A stretch of DNA of 64,000 nucleotides. Origin: Escherichia phage UE-S5a. The DNA is taken from the sequence record PP175015.1, one strand, 5' to 3'. Position 1 is the first letter of the stretch, and every line of letters begins with the position of its first letter. The notes under the pieces were generated by a model. That model was not told where the DNA came from. It ran no database searches and was given only the letters and a program-made list of their open reading frames with translations. Shown here piece after piece: positions 4,980 through 64,000 of this stretch. The position numbers were made by a program, and so were the translations under genes.

Positions 4980-7250
4980 ATGGAACACCAAGACACTTTT
5001 AAGCCTTTACCAGACCCGGCTCAATCAGAGAAGTTAACGGACTGGAAGAAGGAACCAAGTATCCAATTACTGAAGGGTGATTTGGAATCTGCTAAACCTG
5101 CTCACGATGCAATCATGGCACAGATTCGTGAGTGGAATGATTTAATGGAAGTAAAGGGTAAGGCTAAACCCCCAAAGGTTAAGGGACGCTCGCAAGTCCA
5201 GCCTAGACTGGTTCGCCGTCAGGCAGAGTGGCGTTATGCTCCATTGTCTGAACCATTCCTCTCGTCTAACAAACTATTTAAGGTAACTCCGGTTACTTTT
5301 GAAGATGAGTTAGCTGCACGCCAGAATGAGCTAGTTCTTAACTACCAATTCCGTACTCAGCTTAATAAAGTAAAACTGGTAGATGATTACGTGCATAGTG
5401 TCGTAGATGACGGTACTGGTATTGCTCGTATTGGTTGGGAACGTAAGACAGTTAAGATTAAAACAGAAACACCAGTCTTCCAGTTGTACCCAATTGAGAA
5501 CCAGGAACAAGCAGATATTCTTCAGCAGGCTTTGCAGCTTCAGGCAGAGAATCCTCGTGAGTATGATGAAACGATGCCAGAAGATATTAAGGAAGCTGTT
5601 AACTACTTCAATGAAACTGGAGAAGCTACTTATGCAATTCAGACAGGGGTCACTGAAGTAGAAGTAGAAAAAGCACTGGTTAACAGACCTACCGTTGAAA
5701 TGCTTAATCCTAATAACGTAGTTATTGACCCAAGCTGTAATGGTGATTTGGACAAGGCTCTTTATGCAGTCATCTCATTTGAGACTTGTAAAGCAGACCT
5801 CATGAAAAACAAGGACCGTTACCACAACCTGGATAAGATTGACTGGGAAAGTTCCAGTCCTATGACTGACCCAGACCATGAAAGTAAAACTCCAGGTGAC
5901 TTCCAGTTTAAGGATGCACTTCGCAAGAAAGTAATTGCTTATGAGTACTGGGGATTCTACGACATTAACGATGATGGTTCGCTGGAACCAATTGTTGCTA
6001 CCTGGATTGGTTCTACTCTTATTCGTATGGAGAAGAACCCATTCCCAGATGGTAAGTTACCATTGGTAGTTGTTCCTTATATGCCTCGTAAACGTGAACT
6101 CTATGGTGAAGCTGATGCTGAATTGCTAGGAGATAACCAAGCAATTCTTGGTGCAACCATGCGTGGGATGATTGACCTGTTGGGCCGAAGTGCAAATGGT
6201 CAACGTGGTTATCCTAAAGGGATGTTAGATACCCTGAACCGTCGTCGATACGATGATGGACAAGACTACGAATATAACCCAATGCAGGGCAATCCTAGTC
6301 AGGCCATTATGGAACACAAGTTCCCTGAGTTACCCCAGTCGGCAATAGTAATGACTCAGATGCAAAACCAGGAAGCAGAAGCACTAACGGGTGTTAAAGC
6401 ATTCTCGGGTGGTGTAACTGGTGAAGCTTACGGAGATGTAGCTGCTGGTATTCGTGGTGTACTAGATGCAGCATCCAAACGTGAGATGGCAATCCTTCGT
6501 CGATTAGCTAAGGGTATGGCAGACATTGGTACTAAGATTTGTGCAATGAATGCTGTGTTCTTATCTGAGAAAGAAGTAGTACGTATTACTAACGAGCAGT
6601 ACGTAGAGATTAACCGTGAAGACCTTAAAGGTAATTTCGACATTGAAGTTGATATTAATACTGCTGAGATTGATAACCAGAAATCCCAGGACTTGAGCTT
6701 CATGGTTCAAACGTTAGGTAATACGGTTGACCAGACTATTACGTTATCTCTTGTAGCTAAGATTGCAGAACTTAAACGTATGCCAGACCTTGCTCATGAG
6801 TTACGTACATGGCAACCACAACCAGACCCTATGGAAGAACAGCTTAAGCAATTGGCAATTCAGAAAGCACAGCTTGAGAACGAAGAGCTGCAAAGTAAGA
6901 TTGCACTCAATATGGCTAAGGCTAAAGAGGCTGCTTCTAGTGGTGACCTTAAAGATCTGGATTATCTGGAACAGGAATCTGGTACTAAACATGCTCGTGA
7001 CATGGAAAAACAAAAAGCACAATCCCAAGGAAACCAAAACCTTCAGATAACTAAGGCGTTGACAACACCTACTAAAGAAGGTGAAACTACCCCCAACATA
7101 TCTGCTGCTGTTGGATATAACGCTTTGACTAACGGGAACTCTATACCAGAACGTGACTTAGCTGCACAACAAGACCCAGCTTATTCACTTAGTTCCCAAT
7201 TCTATGACCCTAGCCAAGACCCAGCATCGGCTCTTGGCATGAACTTGTAA
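4980..7250 (+). CDS. Portal protein (N4 gp59-like)
   Basis: 756 aa; size and position between lysis cassette and capsid genes match N4 portal; acidic low-complexity C-terminus. Confidence 0.7.
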
Positions 7251-49271: not shown

Positions 49272-49714
49272 TAGAATGACCTTAGATAGTTGGTGATACC
49301 ACTACGGTTTTCTGTAATTTTCTTAACCTGAACATATACCAGCTTAAACTCACTACGGGGTAGTTCTTGTAATACTGCTACACCTTCAGTAAGGGCCACA
49401 GAACACGCTACAGCGGTTTCTTTTTTAAAGGAGTATAAGTCTTCATACATGAGGGCTTCATACTCCCTGCGGAGCATACAGAGAGCATCTCTTGCCTTAT
49501 CACTTACTTCTTGTGAACCAGCAGACATAGCTAAGCTGTATATGATAAAGATTTGTTCAAAAACAAAGTCCAGTAATCTATCAGGATTGTTAGTCCCCAT
49601 GAATAATTTTGATGTGTAGGAACGGGCTTTACGGTTGAGTTCATACTCATCCTCTATGCCTTTATTGTAAAGAACAGGATTTCGTTCCCTTTTCCGTAGG
49701 AATGGGATACGCAT
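49271..49714 (-). CDS. Hypothetical protein
   Basis: 147-aa ORF, ATG start, coupled to ThyX gene. Confidence 0.45.
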   Translation of the reverse strand: MRIPFLRKRERNPVLYNKGIEDEYELNRKARSYTSKLFMGTNNPDRLLDFVFEQIFIIYSLAMSAGSQEVSDKARDALCMLRREYEALMYEDLYSFKKETAVACSVALTEGVAVLQELPRSEFKLVYVQVKKITENRSGITNYLRSF

Positions 49715-56234: not shown

Positions 56235-57452
56235 TTAACTTAATGCATAATCTGTTTCTAGAATGTCTTGCCAGAGGCTGTCATCCAGCTTACCAGCAGA
56301 GAACTCTTGTCCCAGTACTTGAGACAGAATGAAGCCCAGTAAGTCACTCTTAGCAATGTCAGACAGAATCTGATTGTACTGACGACGCAGGTCATTACCA
56401 TAGTTAGGGTGGCAACGGAAGCAATCATGTACAGTCATTACAGGGAATGGTTTCTTAGGCATAGTGTCGATCATATCTGCTACTACTTGACGGTCTACCA
56501 ATGCAATAGTATTCGGGTCAAGGAAGTCTAGGATAGACAGCGACAGGAATCCTGACCTTTCATAATGATTCCAGATTTCCATAGTCTTCTCTTGGTTCCC
56601 CTCAATAACGGGGTATTCACTTGGCCCGATATCGCACAGTTCCCGTACATAGGCAACCAGTTTAGGGTCGAAGTTACAACGACGTAGCATCTCACGTACT
56701 ACCATCCCATCAATAGAGTGAGTGATGTTAGCAGAGAGCATACGGGTCTTCTCTTCAGTACCCTGAACCATACGAGTGATGTCAAATGGTTTACCCAAGA
56801 AGTTAACAGTCTGTACTTCAAGAACCATGACTTTAATGACAGCATGGAAGTTGTCAGGGAGTACCCATATGTAACGGTTAGCATCCGGGTTACCACATTG
56901 CAGTAAGAACTTGTTAAGTGCCCAAGGACCACTTGCAACTGTTTCCATTACATTTTCAAAAGTCTTGAGACGGATACCTTCCCCGAATACTTCTTTAGGT
57001 TTGGCTTCTGAACCGTAGAATGCAGTCATAACTGCCTGCTTGGTATCACTACGTTTAATACGGGATGCTTCACCAAGGATGTCCAGCATCTTGTGATATA
57101 TAACTGTATAAGCATCACGTCGTAATGGCTTACCATTCTCTCCCATGTAATTAACTACGTTACACAGTTCAGCAGCAGAGCGGTCACCAGTCAGGCAGGC
57201 CAGTAACTGCAAGCCTGATGATGTAGCATCCAGGGCTACGGCATATCCGATAGGCTTACCAGCTTTCATATCTTTCCATGCGTTTACACCAGCATAGAAC
57301 AGTGCAGATTCCTCAGCTTCATCTACCAGATTAAGCAAGTTAGCTTCATTCTCATCGAACCAAGCAATACGCTCATCCCAGGTCTTTTTATCCAGACCAT
57401 AGTTATTGGCGATGTCTACTTTCAGGTATTCTTTAGCGGTTAACAGTTGCAT
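56235..57452 (-). CDS. Phage RNA polymerase II catalytic subunit (T7-like, N4 gp16-like)
   Basis: Start moved to ATG 57452 (AAGGAA RBS); T7 RNAP motifs: ALDATSSGLQ (A), RSDTKQAVMTAFYGS (B), VHDCF (C). Confidence 0.75.
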   Translation of the reverse strand: MQLLTAKEYLKVDIANNYGLDKKTWDERIAWFDENEANLLNLVDEAEESALFYAGVNAWKDMKAGKPIGYAVALDATSSGLQLLACLTGDRSAAELCNVVNYMGENGKPLRRDAYTVIYHKMLDILGEASRIKRSDTKQAVMTAFYGSEAKPKEVFGEGIRLKTFENVMETVASGPWALNKFLLQCGNPDANRYIWVLPDNFHAVIKVMVLEVQTVNFLGKPFDITRMVQGTEEKTRMLSANITHSIDGMVVREMLRRCNFDPKLVAYVRELCDIGPSEYPVIEGNQEKTMEIWNHYERSGFLSLSILDFLDPNTIALVDRQVVADMIDTMPKKPFPVMTVHDCFRCHPNYGNDLRRQYNQILSDIAKSDLLGFILSQVLGQEFSAGKLDDSLWQDILETDYALS

Positions 57453-57498: not shown

Positions 57499-58005
57499 TT
57501 ATTGACCGTGACGGTTAGTATAGCCAGCACCATTCTGGTTCAAGGCTTCTAACATGTCGGCTCGTGCATCACATGCTTGTTGGAATGCGAACTCGTAGCC
57601 GTATTTCTTAACTGAGAATACTTTACACCTCTGTTTCTTTGTGATGTTGTCCGTACATGTAGCACGCCAGAATAACCCCTTTGGTGAATCCCATAGAGAT
57701 ACACCAGTTACCCCAGATTTATTGTCTGAACGTTTAGTAGAGTTACGCAGGTTGACTACAATGGGAACACATCGCAAGTTACACCAGCGGCAGTCCGTTC
57801 TGATACCGTTGATGTGGTCAATTGTATAACCAGCAGGGATAGATCTATGCTTCATTTCCCACAACCAACGGTGAAGGTATAAGATTTTATTTCCACGAGA
57901 GATGCGAATGTACCCAGTGGCACTATTCGCTGCCTCCGGTGGATGGGCTACAGCAAGTTCATCAACTGACTTGTTCCAGTAGCCCATTGGCATACGCTCT
58001 TTCAT
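57499..58005 (-). CDS. HNH-AP2 homing endonuclease inserted between the RNAP II subunit genes
   Basis: HNH core YTIDHINGIRTDCRWCNLR; AP2 domain NKSGVTGVSLWDSPKGLFWRATC...KYGYEFAFQQACDARADMLEAL; paralog of 52458-52934. Confidence 0.8.
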   Translation of the reverse strand: MKERMPMGYWNKSVDELAVAHPPEAANSATGYIRISRGNKILYLHRWLWEMKHRSIPAGYTIDHINGIRTDCRWCNLRCVPIVVNLRNSTKRSDNKSGVTGVSLWDSPKGLFWRATCTDNITKKQRCKVFSVKKYGYEFAFQQACDARADMLEALNQNGAGYTNRHGQ

Positions 58006-58823
58006 TAATCCTCATTAACAAGTTCTTTTTCTGCAAATTCTAGGACTGCTTTATTCCAAGAAGTCCCTTGGTAGTTACAGTGATAGCCCTGAGCGTAAGT
58101 ACGCCCACGTTTGTCATATTTGTGACCCAGTGAGAAGTTATTACCTTCTTTGGTCACTAACTCCATTACTTCCTTAGCAGTACGGCTGTACTTCTCAAAG
58201 GCTTTAACACGTTTCTCATATTCCTGACGGGTTTCACCCTCTTTGGGCTTATCCATATTAGGACGAGAGTCTTTTACATAGTTAGCAACGTCCCAGTTGA
58301 TACTTAGACGCTGATTATTCATACGGTTGATGTGATCAAGACAGACATCCATCTCATGATGGTTCTTCTTGAGGATGATACTTCCCCTGCTCTCGTAGTA
58401 ACCTGTATCACGGTTACACAGAACAGGCTTAGGAGCACTTACGATAGGTAATGGATACTGGAATGCTTCCAGTTCCATCTGAACATCTTCACTAATCTCG
58501 TAGATAACACCGAACTTGTCGATGGTAGGGTCATAGTTGAAGCAGTCATTCTCTGCCATCTTATACAGACAGTCAGCGATGTACTGAGCATCATCTGAAT
58601 GGCTCATAAGAGAGCCAATCATAGTCTGAAGGTCAGCACGTTTATGTAGGGCAATCTGCACCATTGCATCAATGAGCAGCTTATAATCAATTTCCAAATA
58701 GGCAGCGAATGCCTTAAAGTCAATTTCTTCGGAGTCCTCAAATTCCTTCCTCATGCGAGGGAGTAATTGATTTTTGTTGAAAAGAATTTCGAGTTGCTTC
58801 TGATGTTCAATGGATGAGTACAT
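58005..58823 (-). CDS. Phage RNA polymerase II small (N-terminal) subunit (N4 gp15-like)
   Basis: 272 aa (N4 gp15 is about 269 aa as recalled); lies upstream of the catalytic subunit. Confidence 0.5.
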   Translation of the reverse strand: MYSSIEHQKQLEILFNKNQLLPRMRKEFEDSEEIDFKAFAAYLEIDYKLLIDAMVQIALHKRADLQTMIGSLMSHSDDAQYIADCLYKMAENDCFNYDPTIDKFGVIYEISEDVQMELEAFQYPLPIVSAPKPVLCNRDTGYYESRGSIILKKNHHEMDVCLDHINRMNNQRLSINWDVANYVKDSRPNMDKPKEGETRQEYEKRVKAFEKYSRTAKEVMELVTKEGNNFSLGHKYDKRGRTYAQGYHCNYQGTSWNKAVLEFAEKELVNED

Positions 58824-58876
58824 CGCTTATTCTCCTAAATGTGATTAATAACCAAAAGCTGCGGAGCAGCTATTAC

Positions 58877-59137
58877 CTAACGTTTAGTCCAAAAGGTAAT
58901 ACGAATACTGTTCTCTTGACCAAGGTAGTCAATACGTACATATAAACCATTACCACTAAACTCGTTATTTTTCTTCTGGTAAGGCCATACCAGACTACGC
59001 ATAGGTATTTTAATTAAACCAGATATGTGACCTAGTTTAGTACGATCCTTTAGTTCGTTTTGTAATGCACAATAGATATCATGCCGTGTAAGTGCTCTGG
59101 CTCTGACTTGAGCAGTCCACAGTTCTTCATAAGTCAT
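58877..59137 (-). CDS. Hypothetical early protein
   Basis: 86-aa ORF. Confidence 0.4.
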   Translation of the reverse strand: MTYEELWTAQVRARALTRHDIYCALQNELKDRTKLGHISGLIKIPMRSLVWPYQKKNNEFSGNGLYVRIDYLGQENSIRITFWTKR

Positions 59138-59139
59138 TA

Positions 59140-59490
59140 TTAACTCCAGTAGTTGTAAGCATCGCCTAAGTGTTTACGCCATGCTTCGGGTAACAGTACA
59201 TTTCCGGTTACATTAATGAACTGGTATGGGTCCAGGTAGTCATTACTCATGACTTTGAAATCCCATTGTGGATTGGCAGATGCATAAGCAATAAAGCCCT
59301 CAATGAAGCCATAGATAGCACCCTCTTTGATACGGTTACCATTGCCATCTCTTACTGGAATAGCAAAGCTATTACCATAATGACCATAGGCCATACCCCA
59401 ACGAGCACCATGCTTCTTATAAGCTAACTTGGCAGAAGCATTGGTATGTTGTCCTAGTGTATTGGTAGTGAATACGAATATTTCTTTCAT
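59140..59490 (-). CDS. Hypothetical early protein (possible SLOG-like nucleotide-binding fold)
   Basis: 116 aa; IFVFTTNTLGQH...GNSFAIP resembles a Rossmann-like SLOG/LOG N-terminus; weak. Confidence 0.35.
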   Translation of the reverse strand: MKEIFVFTTNTLGQHTNASAKLAYKKHGARWGMAYGHYGNSFAIPVRDGNGNRIKEGAIYGFIEGFIAYASANPQWDFKVMSNDYLDPYQFINVTGNVLLPEAWRKHLGDAYNYWS

Positions 59491-59493
59491 TAG

Positions 59494-59874
59494 TTACCCC
59501 TTTGGATTCTCCACAAAGTAGTTATACATAGCTTTTACTAGCTTCTCTTTAATAACCTCACCATGACATGGTTTCGGATAACAGAAGCACTGTAAGGCCA
59601 ACCCTTTCTCATCAATGGCTTTATTACCAAGACGATTAAGTTCATCCAATACAGCTTGATTCTTCCTCATGATTTGTTCATTAAGCCATACTCGATATTT
59701 GGTTATAACCTGTTCTCTTGAACCGTCTTTACCAATAACGAATGGATTTCCTAATGGTGAACCACGTCCGATATACTCACCGGATTTACCGTGATGTTTA
59801 TTAACAATGATAATTGGACGTGCAGCTACACCCAGCAAAGCATTGGTGTCGTCCCCTAATGTAATAGTCTTCAT
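59494..59874 (-). CDS. DUF4326-like protein
   Basis: GRGSPLGNPF ... CFCYPKPCHG pattern. Confidence 0.4.
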   Translation of the reverse strand: MKTITLGDDTNALLGVAARPIIIVNKHHGKSGEYIGRGSPLGNPFVIGKDGSREQVITKYRVWLNEQIMRKNQAVLDELNRLGNKAIDEKGLALQCFCYPKPCHGEVIKEKLVKAMYNYFVENPKG

Positions 59875-60113
59875 GGTTTTAATGCCTCAATAGATGTACT
59901 TACTTTACATACAGTAGTTCCTTCTAATGCGTCTATTTTGTAAGCTAACCCTCTTGTTAACATTACCCCGTTCATTACTTTATTAACCTCTTCTAGGTTA
60001 GGTACAGAAAATGCTTCATTTAATACGGGAGTTGTATGCCAATCTATATAATCATCCGGCATAGCTATAAAATCATCCCCCTTTTTGAATACATAATATT
60101 CTTCATAAATCAT
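59871..60113 (-). CDS. Hypothetical early protein
   Basis: 80-aa ORF, coupled. Confidence 0.4.
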   Translation of the reverse strand: MIYEEYYVFKKGDDFIAMPDDYIDWHTTPVLNEAFSVPNLEEVNKVMNGVMLTRGLAYKIDALEGTTVCKVSTSIEALKP

Positions 60114-60424
60114 GGCTTAAGTACCTGGAATGCGAACACAGGACGTTTACTACGCCACTGGTTCATAGCTAGTTCACTAGTTTCAGAACCATCATGTAAG
60201 TCATAAATGAATGAGATTACATAGTCTGGTTCTTCCGGGAAGTTCTCTGTAGAGAATGGTAGACCTGATTCTTTAAGGATAGGAACCAGTGGAGATTCAG
60301 CATTGCAGTAGAGGGTAAATTCTTCATTGAATGCCTGGCTTGTTTGAGATACATAATCAATATTACGCATCATTTTATCTACATCTGTAAATGTAGAATC
60401 ATGAACTACTAGAATAGTTTTCAT
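60110..60424 (-). CDS. Hypothetical early protein
   Basis: 104-aa ORF, coupled. Confidence 0.4.
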   Translation of the reverse strand: MKTILVVHDSTFTDVDKMMRNIDYVSQTSQAFNEEFTLYCNAESPLVPILKESGLPFSTENFPEEPDYVISFIYDLHDGSETSELAMNQWRSKRPVFAFQVLKP

Positions 60425-60675
60425 ACCTTTCTCAATGTCCCATAGATGTTATTATCGACAATACTCAAATCACAAAAACCAATTTCTTCTTGTCTCCCAG
60501 AGGATACCCAGATATTGTTTTCTGTTAGCTTAGGCTTCTTAGAGAATCCTATTAATGAGGTATTAGCACTTTTATATTGACGTGGTAATAAAGCTATATA
60601 CTTAACCCAGTGAGGTACTTGAATGGTGTGCTTCATATATTCCACAGTCTTGCCTGTAGGATATGTAATAATCAT
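60421..60675 (-). CDS. Hypothetical early protein
   Basis: 84-aa ORF, coupled. Confidence 0.4.
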   Translation of the reverse strand: MIITYPTGKTVEYMKHTIQVPHWVKYIALLPRQYKSANTSLIGFSKKPKLTENNIWVSSGRQEEIGFCDLSIVDNNIYGTLRKV

Positions 60676-61032
60676 TTAGTACCTCACAACGTATACGGGT
60701 TTATTAAGCCTATACATGATATCAATCATGTGCTTGGTTCCTTTGGAATTACCATCCCAGAAACATACAGCAGCATCTGCAAATTCACCCATTTCCAGGT
60801 TACGTTTATAACCAGCACATTTACCATGTTTATCCCAGTTTGCTGGGAAATTATGAATAGGCATTTTGTTATTAGCCCATAGACTATATGCAAGCATATC
60901 TGCTCCACGAGCCATACCACATACTAATTCCGGACATTCAGGTATATTCCCTGAATTTACTAACTTCTGTAATTCCTCAATCATAAGATTGGTATTTACG
61001 AAGTCTCTTCCACCAGCTACGATTAGTCTCAT
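60676..61032 (-). CDS. SLOG/YspA-like (DprA/LOG-fold) protein
   Basis: MRLIVAGGRDF...GMARGADMLAY...FWDGNSKGTKHMI pattern typical of SLOG-family proteins. Confidence 0.4.
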   Translation of the reverse strand: MRLIVAGGRDFVNTNLMIEELQKLVNSGNIPECPELVCGMARGADMLAYSLWANNKMPIHNFPANWDKHGKCAGYKRNLEMGEFADAAVCFWDGNSKGTKHMIDIMYRLNKPVYVVRY

Positions 61033-61250
61033 TTCTGATACCCCTGTATATAGTTAATACGGCGAATACGTTGAGTAGATGCCTTAACAGCCATCTGTTG
61101 ATTTTCTTCTTTACGCTGGTTTTCCAACAGCTTATCCCATTCTTTCTGGTTCCGTTGTTTCTGTAATATACGACTACAACGCTTATGATTAGCAACTCCT
61201 TTACGTTTGTTACATACAGGGCAAACACCATAATCAGTTGAGTACATCAT
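61029..61250 (-). CDS. Basic zinc-ribbon-like small protein
   Basis: CPVCN...HKRC motif; Lys/Arg/Gln-rich. Confidence 0.35.
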   Translation of the reverse strand: MMYSTDYGVCPVCNKRKGVANHKRCSRILQKQRNQKEWDKLLENQRKEENQQMAVKASTQRIRRINYIQGYQK

Positions 61251-61251
61251 T

Positions 61252-61497
61252 TTAGTTGAATCCGTAATAGTTAAAGTAAGGAGCCTTTCTGTCTTCAGTT
61301 GATTTGATAATCACTGATTCATCTAGAAAGTACATCTCATTATTAATACGTACTTCTCTGTAAGATAACTTACCAAAGTTACGTATATATACCTTTCTAA
61401 CATATACCTTACGGGTATGCTTTAGCATGAACCAGGCATACCCTTTGGGATTTACTAATATTGTTTTATCTACGATGACATCACTAAGATTGTTCAC
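61252..61497 (-). CDS. Hypothetical early protein
   Basis: 81-aa ORF. Confidence 0.35.
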   Translation of the reverse strand: MNNLSDVIVDKTILVNPKGYAWFMLKHTRKVYVRKVYIRNFGKLSYREVRINNEMYFLDESVIIKSTEDRKAPYFNYYGFN

Positions 61498-61798
61498 CGA
61501 GTGCCTCCATCAGTATTTTACGAATAACGTTAACATCAGATTCAGTACCAATTAAACCAACAGGTTTACCTGTACTATCAGTTACAAAGCCAGCAATCCT
61601 TTCCATCTCTGCTGTAATTAACTTGTCACCATTAATAAGACGATTACGAAGGTAAGCTTCATAAGCTACCTCTATATCTTCTACTGTGGTTCTTTCATTA
61701 CGAGCAAATGGATTACTTAATGGGAATGGTAAATGTACCCGTATATTCCTGTCAGCTACTTTAGCTTGGTGAGGAAGTATACATACTATTTCATTCAA
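61484..61798 (-). CDS. Hypothetical early protein (possible second DUF4326-like)
   Basis: 104 aa; contains LSNPF motif similar to 59494-59874. Confidence 0.35.
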   Translation of the reverse strand: MNEIVCILPHQAKVADRNIRVHLPFPLSNPFARNERTTVEDIEVAYEAYLRNRLINGDKLITAEMERIAGFVTDSTGKPVGLIGTESDVNVIRKILMEALGEQS

Positions 61799-61847
61799 GA
61801 TTATTTCTCCTATTTAAATACATATCTAACTATTCAAAAATAAAAAA

Positions 61848-61875
61848 TAGGAGCCTCCTATTGGAGGACTCCTTA
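61848..61875 (-). terminator. Candidate terminator (minus sense)
   Basis: A-run then AGGAG-CCTCC-tatt-GGAGG-ACTCCT nested hairpin. Confidence 0.4.
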
Positions 61876-62169
61876 CTATTTGATACATGGATGATTGTAA
61901 GTAACAATCTTACGTACTGGTTCAGATGTCTGTTGCTTAGCAGCCAGACGTTCCTTCATCTTCTGTACGTCAGCTTTGGTTCCCATGATTAATGACTTAC
62001 GCATGTTTGGTACTCCACATAAAGTTAAAAGGCTTGTTGTTGTTACGTACAATTCTTACAACCATTTGATAGCCATTGAGTTGTACAACACCATAGTGTC
62101 GTTTCTGTACACCAGTGTGATATCTACGAAAGATACATTCTTCAATGGCATCCTCAATGTTAGTGAATA

Positions 62170-62388
62170 TCACTGGTTCCTCTTTGCAAACTCTTCTGCT
62201 TCTTTAGCCCAGAGTTGCTTACGTACCTCTTTAGCTATGATGGAAGCAAACAGACACTTAACGAATACAACTGGTAACTTACAAATAAGTACCAGCTTAG
62301 TTCTTACCCACTTGGCTCCATTGAGAATGTAACCACGTAGGCGATACAGCACATAACAGAGTATTACAAACGCAATGAAGTCCAACAT
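62170..62388 (-). CDS. Small membrane protein
   Basis: 72 aa; N-terminal hydrophobic helix. Confidence 0.4.
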   Translation of the reverse strand: MLDFIAFVILCYVLYRLRGYILNGAKWVRTKLVLICKLPVVFVKCLFASIIAKEVRKQLWAKEAEEFAKRNQ

Positions 62389-62392
62389 AGTC

Positions 62393-62578
62393 TTACACCT
62401 TATGAAGTTTACGGATTTGTTTACGAGTAGGTTTAGCTACAAAGAAGTGGTCATAATGCTGACCATTCTTATCTTCTACAGATACCTGCCAACGAGCATT
62501 AAGAGACATCTTACTACCCCAAGGTTGTAACATAACAATCAACTTTTGTGAGTTATAACGGTTACATACTGTACGCAT
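62393..62578 (-). CDS. Hypothetical small protein
   Basis: 61-aa ORF. Confidence 0.35.
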   Translation of the reverse strand: MRTVCNRYNSQKLIVMLQPWGSKMSLNARWQVSVEDKNGQHYDHFFVAKPTRKQIRKLHKV

Positions 62579-62679
62579 AATGGTTACTCCTTCATCTAAT
62601 ATAAATCTATATCTATCTGGTTACTGTTTCAGTACCCTTCGTCTAAAGATACTCAAAAAGTAGAAATAGATTATCGTCT

Positions 62680-62712
62680 AGTTAAAAATAAAAGACTCCC
62701 CGAAGGGAGTCT
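62680..62712 (-). terminator. Rho-independent terminator (minus sense)
   Basis: aaaaataaa-AGACTCCC-cgaa-GGGAGTCT; 8-bp stem. Confidence 0.55.
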
Positions 62713-62721
62713 AGTGGTTGA

Positions 62722-63105
62722 TTAGAAAGTCAGTTTACGAGCATATTTATTCTCGTCTGCTGGGATGTCAGCAGCCTCTGCTTTCACACGACGAAGTTGA
62801 ACTTGCAGGTTAATGATACCTTCTTCACCAGGTTCCAGGTTCTGAGCATATTCAATTAACTGTTCCAACAGGTCGTTCTGTGCACAACGCATAGCACGGA
62901 AGTCAGCATTGCTGCTATTAGTAGGCAGCGGCTCCTGAGTATCCAAAGGAATACCAGTAGGCAATGAGATGAATTTCTCATCATCAGAGCCTTCATTAGC
63001 TACATAACCAATGTTCAGCCAGAACTGAGCTTTAGGCTTATCAGTTTTAGCAGTAGAAGTAGCAGCAGCGTTAGATTGACCGAAAGTGAATTTTTGAATA
63101 GACAT
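62722..63105 (-). CDS. Acidic hypothetical early protein
   Basis: Start moved to ATG 63105 (GGAGAG RBS); acidic C-terminus. Confidence 0.4.
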
Positions 63106-63238
63106 TTTGTACTCTCCAGATAAATGATTGTTTGATTTATGGGTTTGTCCGTCGGTGACTAAACCCAAGAAAAGACTTAAGATTTCAATGATTAGTGGAT
63201 GCATTTAAATCATCCATAAGACGCGGAGCGTCTTGGTT

Positions 63239-63442
63239 TTAACTGTTATTAGGTCGGTGCTGTTTGATAGCTTTAAGCAAGGCTATCATGTCATCAATTT
63301 CTTTCTCGTTAAGTTTCCATAATATGGAATCCCCATCAGGGTAACCTTTAGCGGAACCATGATTCACGAGAACTACCCCGTCTACAATTGCTCCAAATAG
63401 TTTTCCTCTTTGGATAGCAATCTTCTCTATGTTAAATGCCAT
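63239..63442 (-). CDS. Hypothetical small protein
   Basis: 67-aa ORF. Confidence 0.35.
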   Translation of the reverse strand: MAFNIEKIAIQRGKLFGAIVDGVVLVNHGSAKGYPDGDSILWKLNEKEIDDMIALLKAIKQHRPNNS

Positions 63443-63499
63443 AAATAGGATTCTCTTAAAGTAGAATAACTATCTACTTTTGACTATCTATCTAATGTT

Positions 63500-63528
63500 C
63501 AAAACAGGAGACTCCGAAGAGCCTCCTA
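63500..63528 (-). terminator. Candidate terminator (minus sense)
   Basis: caaaac-AGGAGACTC-cgaa-GAGCCTCCT imperfect hairpin. Confidence 0.35.
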
Positions 63529-63534
63529 GGTGAC

Positions 63535-63858
63535 TTAGTTTTTAGTCAGGATGTCAATTACTTTTGAATATTCTGCGTTATAGATACGAGCGTTTTCTTT
63601 ATCCTTGCAGAATTCTTCAATACTTTTCTTACGCAGAGTCTCAGTCATAGCTGTCTCCTCTGCCAGTTTATTAACAAAGGTATGCATTTCTAATTTAGTA
63701 CGGATGGCTTGTTTCTCTGCCATAGTACTTACATATGAATTAAGCATACCTACTGCTTTAGTTGCTGTACCGAATGTATCTGCAACAGTAGTAGCAGCTG
63801 AGTTAACAGTACCAAGTAAAGTTCCTGCGGTCATACGTACAGTAGCTTGAGTAGTCAT
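63535..63858 (-). CDS. Hypothetical early protein
   Basis: 107 aa; ATG with GGAG RBS. Confidence 0.45.
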   Translation of the reverse strand: MTTQATVRMTAGTLLGTVNSAATTVADTFGTATKAVGMLNSYVSTMAEKQAIRTKLEMHTFVNKLAEETAMTETLRKKSIEEFCKDKENARIYNAEYSKVIDILTKN

Positions 63859-64000
63859 GATGATAGCTCCAATAGTTGATGATAGGACGACATGTCCATA
63901 ACATGCGGAGCATGTGTAACGTGTAAGGTGGGGTAGGGTAGTGGCTACACCGTCAACATACCGGGGGGGCTAGTTGAGTGTAAGGGTGTAGCCCCAGCCA

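Follow-up and report, generated by a model that had tools for sequence, protein, structure and literature searches.

The early region of an N4-like Escherichia phage: hairpin promoters, a DUF4326 pair and a predicted set of ADP-ribose-type domains

What is the role of the crowded small genes at positions 58877-63858 of the 64,000-nucleotide stretch of Escherichia phage DNA analysed here (the window)? A first-pass annotation had counted about 15 small minus-strand genes at this locus, most of them without an assigned function, and had taken them for an island of host-takeover and anti-defence genes in the early region of an N4-like phage. In sequence, the window matches Escherichia phage UE-M3 (PP301342.1; Gamaleyavirus, Enquatrovirinae, Schitoviridae) at 100% identity, and the island constitutes the right end of the UE-M3 record, on the minus strand, where the early region lies. 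Dozens of G7C-like phages match it with 85-99% identity. In total, 17 genes were accepted, numbered g01-g17 in order of transcription. All of them are on the minus strand, as had been noticed, and 17 of 17 are annotated in PP301342.1, nearly all as 'hypothetical'. Comparison with eight related phages and N4, all nine of which belong to the Enquatrovirinae, assigns the island as the ortholog of the N4 early region from gp1 to gp14, with homologs in conserved order (g01=gp1, g03=gp2, g07=gp6, g08=gp9, g13=gp11, g15=gp12, and g16=gp14). The island is an N4-type early region that additionally holds a published, computationally predicted set of ADP-ribose domains; its sequence was already public.

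The genes are closely packed. The junctions of g08-g17 range from -14 to +3 nt (overlaps of 4-14 nt, or spacings of 0-3 nt), and those of g04-g07 are equally tight. Intergenic gaps of 77-143 nt occur only at the sites of regulatory hairpins, which bears out the tight coupling proposed earlier. Measured against the nine compared phages, the ratio of nonsynonymous to synonymous substitution rates (dN/dS) lies between 0.01 and 0.7, mostly below 0.3. These low values indicate that the genes are real and not chance open reading frames (ORFs). Profile searches found families for the SLOG, DUF4326, and A1S_2505 proteins, which are the following.

g15: 59494-59874, minus strand; 126 amino acids; N4 gp12 homolog, intact DUF4326 protein
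g08: 61484-61798, minus strand; 104 amino acids, TTG start; N4 gp9 homolog, degenerate DUF4326 paralog
g11: 60676-61032, minus strand; 118 amino acids; YAcAr/YspA-type SLOG protein, accessory gene; phrog_289
g16: 59140-59490, minus strand; 116 amino acids; N4 gp14 homolog of the A1S_2505 family, predicted macrodomain fold

The DUF4326 proteins form a pair of one intact and one degenerate member. With 80.6 bits, g15 scores far above the gathering cutoff of 25 for DUF4326 (PF14216), and it carries every family-invariant residue, namely GRGSPLGNPF, Arg53, Y..WL, and CxCxPxxCH, the latter as CFCYPKPCHG. An AlphaFold2 model of g15 based on 116 diverse DUF4326 representatives is confident (pLDDT 93.6) and displays a strand-Cys loop-helix arrangement with similarity to RapZ-C and Cys-phosphatase folds. 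The predicted arrangement is shared with the cysteine phosphatases PTEN, DUSP, and PTP, but the identity to RapZ-C and these phosphatases amounts to 11-14%, and g15 contains CxCxPxxCH instead of CX5R. A PDB sequence search with g15 gave no meaningful relative, and Foldseek comparison of the DUF4326 model with the PDB yielded nothing significant. DUF4326 has been assigned to the rhodanese-phosphatase class (PMC9503650), an assignment that the g15 model weakly supports.

The first-pass annotation had seen the pattern GNPF...CxCxPxxCHG in two proteins. It is present in g15 (59494-59874), and g08 (61484-61798) is indeed a DUF4326 homolog, but the motif is missing there. The homology of g08 is evident from its assignment to phrog_464 (4e-15), the same PHROG as that of g15, from a BLASTP match between g08 and g15 (2e-6), and from phmmer matches to family representatives down to 7e-11. 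Against the Pfam DUF4326 model, g08 reaches 15.7 bits, which is below the cutoff of 25. It has lost GRGS, the conserved Arg, and CxCxPxxCH and retains only PLSNPF and Y..YL; N4 gp9 likewise lacks the lost motifs. From these losses, g08 is predicted to be non-catalytic. The gene is not decaying, as it shares 73% identity with N4 gp9 at a dN/dS of 0.09. Records with g08 matches comprise 94 of phages named after Escherichia, Shigella, Klebsiella, or Erwinia and 3 of Gamaleyavirus only, and the matches listed are N4-like phages.

The SLOG/YspA-like protein proposed at 60676-61032 was confirmed, with g11 scoring 40.4 bits against Pfam YAcAr (PF10686; cutoff 28.2, E 2.5e-10). It aligns from end to end with the SLOG portions of fusion proteins, and tblastn detects homologs in 1086 phage records. 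A PDB sequence search with g11 gave nothing meaningful. The gene is missing from N4, G7C, and IME11 and is present patchily among the relatives compared. With a dN/dS of 0.22-0.36, it evolves faster than the other domain proteins.

Affiliation of g16 with A1S_2505 is based on a score of 83.6 bits against the NCBIfam model (NF049995, 'A1S_2505 family phage non-structural protein'; cutoff 45), and this membership explains why some pipelines label g16 'ADP-ribosylglycohydrolase'. By structural modelling, g16 is assigned a macrodomain fold. Pfam Macro is not matched, and PDB sequence and profile searches with g16 gave nothing meaningful. The UE-M3/G7C clade has TTN..HTNASA in place of GSN..HGAGAA and IPVR in place of IPTK, and it has a deletion of RIGCGLAG; these signature loops are kept in N4 gp14 and in most relatives. 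Within the genus, purifying selection on g16 persists (dN/dS 0.05-0.14). Macrodomains of the DarG/TARG1 type, which act as ADP-ribose hydrolases on DNA or protein, differ from g16 in several respects: identity is 9-12%, neither Pfam Macro nor a PDB sequence is matched, and the glycine-rich and GCGL-type A1S_2505 loops are substituted or deleted in UE-M3. These loops would correspond to the catalytic elements of TARG1.

The four proteins are connected by domain fusions. Among the 150 best DUF4326 representatives, 27 are multidomain proteins, with YAcAr as the partner in 6, NADAR in 3, DprA-like in 2, and YpsA and Macro in 1 each. The protein P0131 is a fusion of SLOG and DUF4326; its SLOG half shares 54% identity with g11, and its DUF4326 half 52% with g15. 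It is encoded by a distant N4-like schitovirus (L010, a 69.9 kb contig of Logan SRR25400119) in an N4-like early region between gp1/gp2 and the genes of phage RNA polymerase II (RNAPII), three genes upstream of a macro-like gp14 homolog (coordinates 5001-5681 and 6460-6849 of the contig). Homologs of gp9 and gp11 are missing from this contig. A second fusion, P0247, joins DUF4326 to an A1S_2505-like domain. In a third, P0233, SLOG is accompanied by two copies of DUF4326, one intact and one Cys-less; it is the only tandem case found. Its middle region is unassigned and resembles the fusions that carry NADAR, in which the corresponding region is NADAR according to Pfam scans. The fusions were recovered here independently and match those of Iyer, Burroughs, and Aravind (PMC7824862, PMC9503650), who predicted a viral network in which the domains SLOG, Macro, NADAR, and DUF4326 process ADP-ribose derivatives. 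UE-M3 agrees with this predicted network in the domain families and the early-gene location that its authors noted for phages (PMC7824862, PMC9503650). It differs in that the domains are encoded as separate small genes, NADAR is absent, and there are an extra Cys-less DUF4326 paralog and a degenerate macro-like member.

A further protein without a family assignment shares the strong constraint on this group.

g13: 60110-60424, minus strand; 104 amino acids; N4 gp11 homolog, most conserved protein of the region

The homologs of gp9, gp11, and gp12 (g08, g13, and g15) are found in all nine compared Enquatrovirinae and are 73-85% identical between N4 and UE-M3, with a dN/dS of about 0.09. RNAPII reaches 67-68%, and RNAPII together with its cofactors 67-71%. 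For most of the SLOG- and DUF4326-type proteins, the expectation of fast-evolving accessory genes is contradicted by these values, and the SLOG gene alone is patchy. With 82% identity to N4 gp11 and a dN/dS of 0.00-0.12, g13 is 99-100% identical in most of the Gamaleyaviruses compared (G7C 81%, SP5M 96%), despite a synonymous divergence of about 0.3. Only 23 clusters were retrieved for g13 from a database of 5.8 billion proteins, and the 21 that cover at least 98% of the query are all at least 64% identical. Pfam, PDB, hhalign, and PADLOC show no relation, and no homolog was detected outside N4-like phages. By these searches, the g13 family appears lineage-restricted, and its GenBank label 'antirepressor' is unsupported. 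A suspected likeness of g13 to nucleoside deoxyribosyltransferase-like domains is unsupported as well. The main unexplained item of the region is g13. Other misleading or unsupported labels are 'DprA' in the UE-M3 record and 'integrase', 'NrdA-like', 'GTP-binding domain', and 'RNAP1 subunit A' in relatives.

The regulatory hairpins place these proteins in an N4-type transcription programme. The first-pass annotation had described hairpins of the UUCG terminator type between the genes. Three hairpins are indeed predicted terminators, two with a UUCG and one with an AAUA loop; the other three are predicted promoters of the virion RNA polymerase (RNAP).

P1-like virion-RNAP promoter hairpin: 63901-63915, minus strand; coding strand ACATGC-TCC-GCATGT, template (plus) strand GCGGAGC; predicted +1 is G at 63897
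P2-like virion-RNAP promoter hairpin: 63218-63234, minus strand; AAGACGC-TCC-GCGTCTT; predicted +1 is G at 63215; DNA fold z -4.7; counterpart of N4 P2
P3-like virion-RNAP promoter hairpin: 58857-58871, minus strand; AGCTGC-TCC-GCAGCT; predicted +1 is G at 58853
t1 terminator: 63505-63528, minus strand; 10-bp stem and UUCG loop, then GUUUU; -16.5 kcal/mol, z -3.1
t2 terminator: 62693-62712, minus strand; 8-bp stem and UUCG loop, then UUUUAUUUUU; z -3.5
t3 terminator: 61849-61873, minus strand; 10-bp interrupted stem and AAUA loop, then a long U tract; z -4.3

An N4-type promoter was defined as a DNA hairpin of the template strand whose stem spans 5-7 bp and whose loop spans 3 nt, with a heptamer that is GC-rich and centred at -11. 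The three promoter hairpins have stems of 6-7 bp, with GGA as the loop on the plus (template) strand, and are the only inverted-repeat GC-TCC-GC hairpins in the window, all located here and all in coding orientation. The published determinants of the N4 virion RNAP are a template purine at -11, G at -10, G at -8, and C at +1; from -8, the start lies eight nucleotides further downstream (PMC4496689). Each hairpin presents the template residues G(-8) C G(-10) G(-11) A; at +1 (63897, 63215, and 58853), the template base is C and the RNA base is G. On the coding strand, T(A/T)TGG follows each of them. N4 counterparts are located upstream of gp1, gp2, and gp15 (GTTGC-TTC-GCAAC, GAAGC-TCC-GCTTC, and AGCTGC-TCC-GCAGCT, respectively), which are the positions of N4 P1-P3. 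The P1-like hairpin shares its core and the downstream sequence TTATGGACATG with N4 P1 and is identical in seven Gamaleyaviruses; the P3-like hairpin is identical in sequence to N4 P3. Across the nine phages, the stems covary by compensatory changes around a fixed core, with P2 stems such as GACGC, GATGC, and GAAGC. The P3-like hairpin, as the predicted promoter of the RNAPII genes, forms the island's downstream boundary. A fourth GCGGAGC in the window, at 49469, was dropped as a promoter, as no inverted repeat surrounds it. A scan for sigma-70 promoters found 9 sites compared with 20.7 in shuffled sequences, and this scarcity fits an independence from the host RNA polymerase.

All three terminators fold at -14 to -17 kcal/mol with z values of -3.1 to -4.3 against shuffled controls and are followed by U tracts, of which that of t1 is short (4 U). 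Terminators are annotated at the corresponding places in the GenBank record of SP5M. Just 3' of each terminator, TAGATAG/TAGATA repeats are found on the minus strand (63476-63494, 62615, and 61828), with three copies past t1. As a candidate middle promoter, TAGATA(G) was dropped: with 27 copies per strand, the window shows no enrichment of the hexamer. In SP5M, St11Ph5, and G7C, a fourth GC-TCC-GC hairpin is located between P1 and P2 (L003 ~6295, L007 ~6567, and L005 ~502, respectively), before variable cassette genes. UE-M3 has no such hairpin at 63239-63534, where it carries the unique gene g02, which would consequently rely on read-through of t1.

Two genes at the upstream end belong to the transcription machinery.

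g01: 63535-63858, minus strand; 107 amino acids; N4 gp1 homolog, 67% identity; phrog_5020
g03: 62722-63204, minus strand; 160 amino acids; N4 gp2 homolog, 68-71% identity, directly downstream of P2

N4 gp2 is a protein that binds to single-stranded DNA and recruits RNAPII, and gp1 is also required for middle transcription by RNAPII (PMC4496689). This role is established in N4 and is inferred here for g01 and g03, as predicted cofactors, from 67-71% identity. A tblastn search with g03 found matches in 203 phage records; the matches listed are all N4-like phages, some labelled 'N4 gp2-like' or 'ssDNA-binding'. Both genes are best regarded as housekeeping genes of the phage programme, and the idea of an island consisting simply of host-takeover and anti-defence genes does not hold, since gp1 and gp2 assist the RNAPII of the phage itself as cofactors (PMC4496689). 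The start of g03 allows two readings. The long ORF begins 11 nt from the predicted P2 start and lacks a Shine-Dalgarno sequence, and an alternative ATG at 63105 with a strong GGAG would give 127 amino acids. As the sole start, 63105 was dropped in favour of the long ORF, whose upstream extension is conserved in frame and agrees with the N4 annotation. The N-terminal extension is hydrophobic, conserved in N4, and in frame through a 6-nt indel. N4 gp2 has been reported as membrane-associated (PMC4496689), and two isoforms or a membrane-anchoring extension are possible for g03.

The N4 early region is the closest known system. It shares with UE-M3 the gene order with the RNAPII genes (gp15/gp16) directly downstream, three hairpin promoters, of which P3 is identical and P1 and P2 have common cores, and homologs of gp1, gp2, gp6, gp9, gp11, gp12, and gp14 at 45-85% identity. 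By contrast, gp3, 4, 5, 7, 8, 10, and 13 have no counterpart in UE-M3, and ten UE-M3 genes, including the SLOG gene, are missing from N4. The signature motifs of gp14 are lost in UE-M3, and an HNH-AP2 endonuclease is inserted between its RNAPII subunit genes.

The reading that we favour, at slightly better than even confidence, is an early module that processes ADP-ribose-derived substrates within an N4-type early transcription region. By analogy with N4, the injected virion RNA polymerase, whose initiation depends on gyrase and SSB, would start at the template-strand hairpins P1, P2, and P3 (+1 at 63897, 63215, and 58853), and the transcripts would read partly through the three intrinsic terminators into the translationally coupled block of small genes. 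The gp1 and gp2 homologs would then enable RNAPII, encoded just downstream of P3, to transcribe the middle genes. Among the early products would be four proteins of nucleotide or ADP-ribose type, namely the gp12-like DUF4326 enzyme, its Cys-less gp9-like paralog, the gp14-like macro fold, and the accessory YAcAr SLOG protein. Since DUF4326, SLOG, and macro-like domains are fused together in other viruses, they most likely act on one substrate class. The substrates may be ADP-ribose-derived host immune signals or toxic metabolites, or ADP-ribosylated or phosphorylated nucleic-acid ends, which the module would remove early in infection. Binding or cleavage of the ribosyl-base or the ribosyl-protein/DNA bond could fall to the SLOG or macro domain, and DUF4326 could take off a terminal phosphate. 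The Cys-less gp9-like copy is probably a non-catalytic partner or a substrate binder.

Several points weigh against this reading. We know of no biochemical activity for DUF4326, the viral YAcAr SLOG, or the A1S_2505 family, and the assignment of the substrate is guilt by association. Without GSN..HGAGAA, IPTK, and RIGCGLAG, g16 may have no ADP-ribose binding at all, and the invariant C, C, C, and H of DUF4326 could be a structural zinc site instead of a catalytic cysteine loop. The SLOG gene is dispensable in close relatives. A core phage function explains the conservation of gp9, gp11, and gp12 above RNAPII no less well than an arms race does, and the transcription starts and the read-through are inferred from N4. 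A bolder form of the ADP-ribose reading proposes a core early pathway of the DUF4326 enzyme/pseudo-enzyme pair (gp12 and Cys-less gp9), the ORFan gp11, the macro-fold protein, and, in some strains, SLOG. It would remove ADP-ribose-derived modifications or signals, e.g., DNA ADP-ribosylation of the DarT type or TIR-derived messengers, under a constraint above that of the phage's own RNA polymerases and with the pseudo-enzyme as an obligatory partner. In this full form, the proposal is doubtful and highly tentative.

The conservation also underlies the first of two different explanations, which assigns the DUF4326 pair, gp11, and the macro-like protein to the nucleic-acid metabolism of the phage itself and not to counter-defence, for instance in DNA or RNA end processing, or in repair tied to replication or to the single-stranded hairpin-based transcription. 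Values of identity and dN/dS as strong as those of gp9, gp11, and gp12, whose homologs occur in 9 of 9 compared Enquatrovirinae, speak against typical arms-race binders and make a core phage role a serious rival. The structural neighbour RapZ-C is an RNA-binding domain, DUF488 models also match DUF4326 proteins, and relatives bear the PHROG label 'DNA repair protein'. A clade of RapZ-C, DUF488, and DUF4326 is said to have been predicted by Burroughs and Aravind in 2023 to process DNA ends. On the other hand, the recurrent fusion partners SLOG, NADAR, and Macro are tied to ADP-ribose chemistry, replication and repair genes are not adjacent, and the genes belong to a pre-replicative early operon. 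The distant contig with the SLOG-DUF4326 fusion lacks gp9 and gp11 homologs, so these are not universal. Altogether, a role in the phage's own metabolism is possible, though not probable.

The other explanation regards the products as independent host-takeover or anti-defence proteins that bind host targets, with the domain proteins as individual inhibitors or sponges and no common pathway. The early position and small size of the genes agree with this, as do the cassette-like turnover of g02, g06, g09, g12, g14, g17, and the SLOG gene and the extra hairpin promoter that precedes variable cassettes in relatives. The degenerate DUF4326 and macro proteins could act as ligand sponges. Yet gp1 and gp2 are transcription cofactors (PMC4496689), the domain proteins are under strong purifying selection, enzyme-like motifs are intact in g15 and g11, and the fusions point to joint action. 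No homolog of N4 gp8 was found in the region, gp8 being presumably the only characterised host-takeover protein of N4. Known anti-defence families were not matched, although no search dedicated to anti-defence proteins was made, and PADLOC, which covers defence systems, gave no match for g08-g17. The one experimental precedent, an indirect one, comes from phage PhiDruSM1, in which deletion of a DprA/Smf-like ORF lowers plating on AVAST type III (10.1101/2024.04.14.589459; 10.1101/2025.06.06.658234). Its product, ORF83, is likened to g11 by class only, both being small phage proteins of SLOG/DprA-like Rossmannoid type; a C-terminal DUF4326 occurs in ORF83-related proteins of amoeba viruses (10.1101/2025.06.06.658234). 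However, PhiDruSM1 is an unrelated phage of another subfamily (spelled 'Quenovirinae' in the preprint), and the plating defect is modest and without a known mechanism. An attribution of the anti-Avs ORF83 to phage ZL19, taken for N4-like, proved wrong, as ZL19 is described with Drexlerviridae phages and not with N4-like ones, and ORF83 is from PhiDruSM1. The accessory-gene papers of Silas et al. contain nothing on families of the SLOG, DUF4326, or A1S_2505 type. A collection of independent inhibitors is considered unlikely as an account of the island.

The remaining small genes, about nine, are variable cassette genes; g07, a gp6 homolog, is listed with them.

g02: 63239-63442, minus strand; 67 amino acids; unique to the UE-M3 group, strain-specific cassette gene
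g04: 62393-62578, minus strand; 61 amino acids; DUF7279 (Pfam PF23945, 3.5e-10); phrog_7840
g05: 62170-62388, minus strand; 72 amino acids; hydrophobic N-terminus; phrog_13158
g06: 61997-62173, minus strand; 58 amino acids, GTG start; phrog_5407
g07: 61876-62004, minus strand; 42 amino acids; N4 gp6 homolog, 60% identity; phrog_7648
g09: 61252-61497, minus strand; 81 amino acids; accessory; phrog_10124
g10: 61029-61250, minus strand; 73 amino acids; CxxC-x8-HxxC putative zinc knuckle, then a basic tail; phrog_6887
g12: 60421-60675, minus strand; 84 amino acids; phrog_1972; two divergent alleles among relatives
g14: 59871-60113, minus strand; 80 amino acids; accessory; among the eight relatives shared with G7C alone; no family match
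g17: 58877-59137, minus strand; 86 amino acids; phrog_14487; missing from N4, G7C, and pSb-1

For g02, no homolog was found in the eight compared relatives, and Pfam and PHROG gave no match. Two allelic forms of g06 exist among relatives, with 93-95% and 55-57% identity, respectively. The accessory gene g09 is missing from five of eight relatives, and in-frame stops in its pSb-1 (L008) and SP5M (L003) homologs suggest ongoing loss. The protein at 61029-61250, g10, had been called a zinc-ribbon protein. Its C-x2-C-x8-H-x2-C ligands (C10, C13, H22, and C25) are kept in 8 of 8 relatives, Pfam is not matched, and the ribbon fold itself is putative. Searches of Pfam, PHROG, and PADLOC gave no informative homology for g02, g04-g06, g09, g10, g12, g14, and g17, and Rfam and tRNA scans gave no match. 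Profile searches left g13 and most of the small ORFs unmatched. The genes do not all fall into characterised housekeeping families, and most products are without an assigned function, as the first-pass annotation had stated.

Adjacent to the island, a homing endonuclease gene with HNH and AP2 domains is located at 57499-58005 on the minus strand and overlaps both junctions with the RNAPII subunit genes (58005-58823 and 56235-57452). At the same site, relatives carry another endonuclease (G7C, pSb-1), or a 162-nt ORF (SP5M, St11Ph5, IME11), and N4 has nothing there. The locus resembles a hot spot of homing.

The present analysis adds a promoter and terminator map with predicted starts for a phage of the G7C type and describes gp9 as a conserved Cys-less DUF4326 paralog. 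The predicted macro fold of gp14 and its degeneration in the UE-M3/G7C clade are likewise new, as is the selection contrast with RNAPII. To our knowledge, gp1, gp2, and gp8 are the only N4 early genes with assigned roles, despite decades of use of N4 as a model phage. DUF4326 has thousands of members in phages and giant viruses. From the early region, gp9, gp11, gp12, gp14, and the SLOG gene emerge as a short list, within a domain network predicted to process ADP-ribose derivatives. Should this list lead nowhere, the region is an ordinary early operon that had been sequenced before. If gp9 and gp12 form an enzyme/pseudo-enzyme module acting on ADP-ribose-derived substrates, the interest of the region would rise. 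The listed genes could also provide a first biochemical handle on DUF4326.

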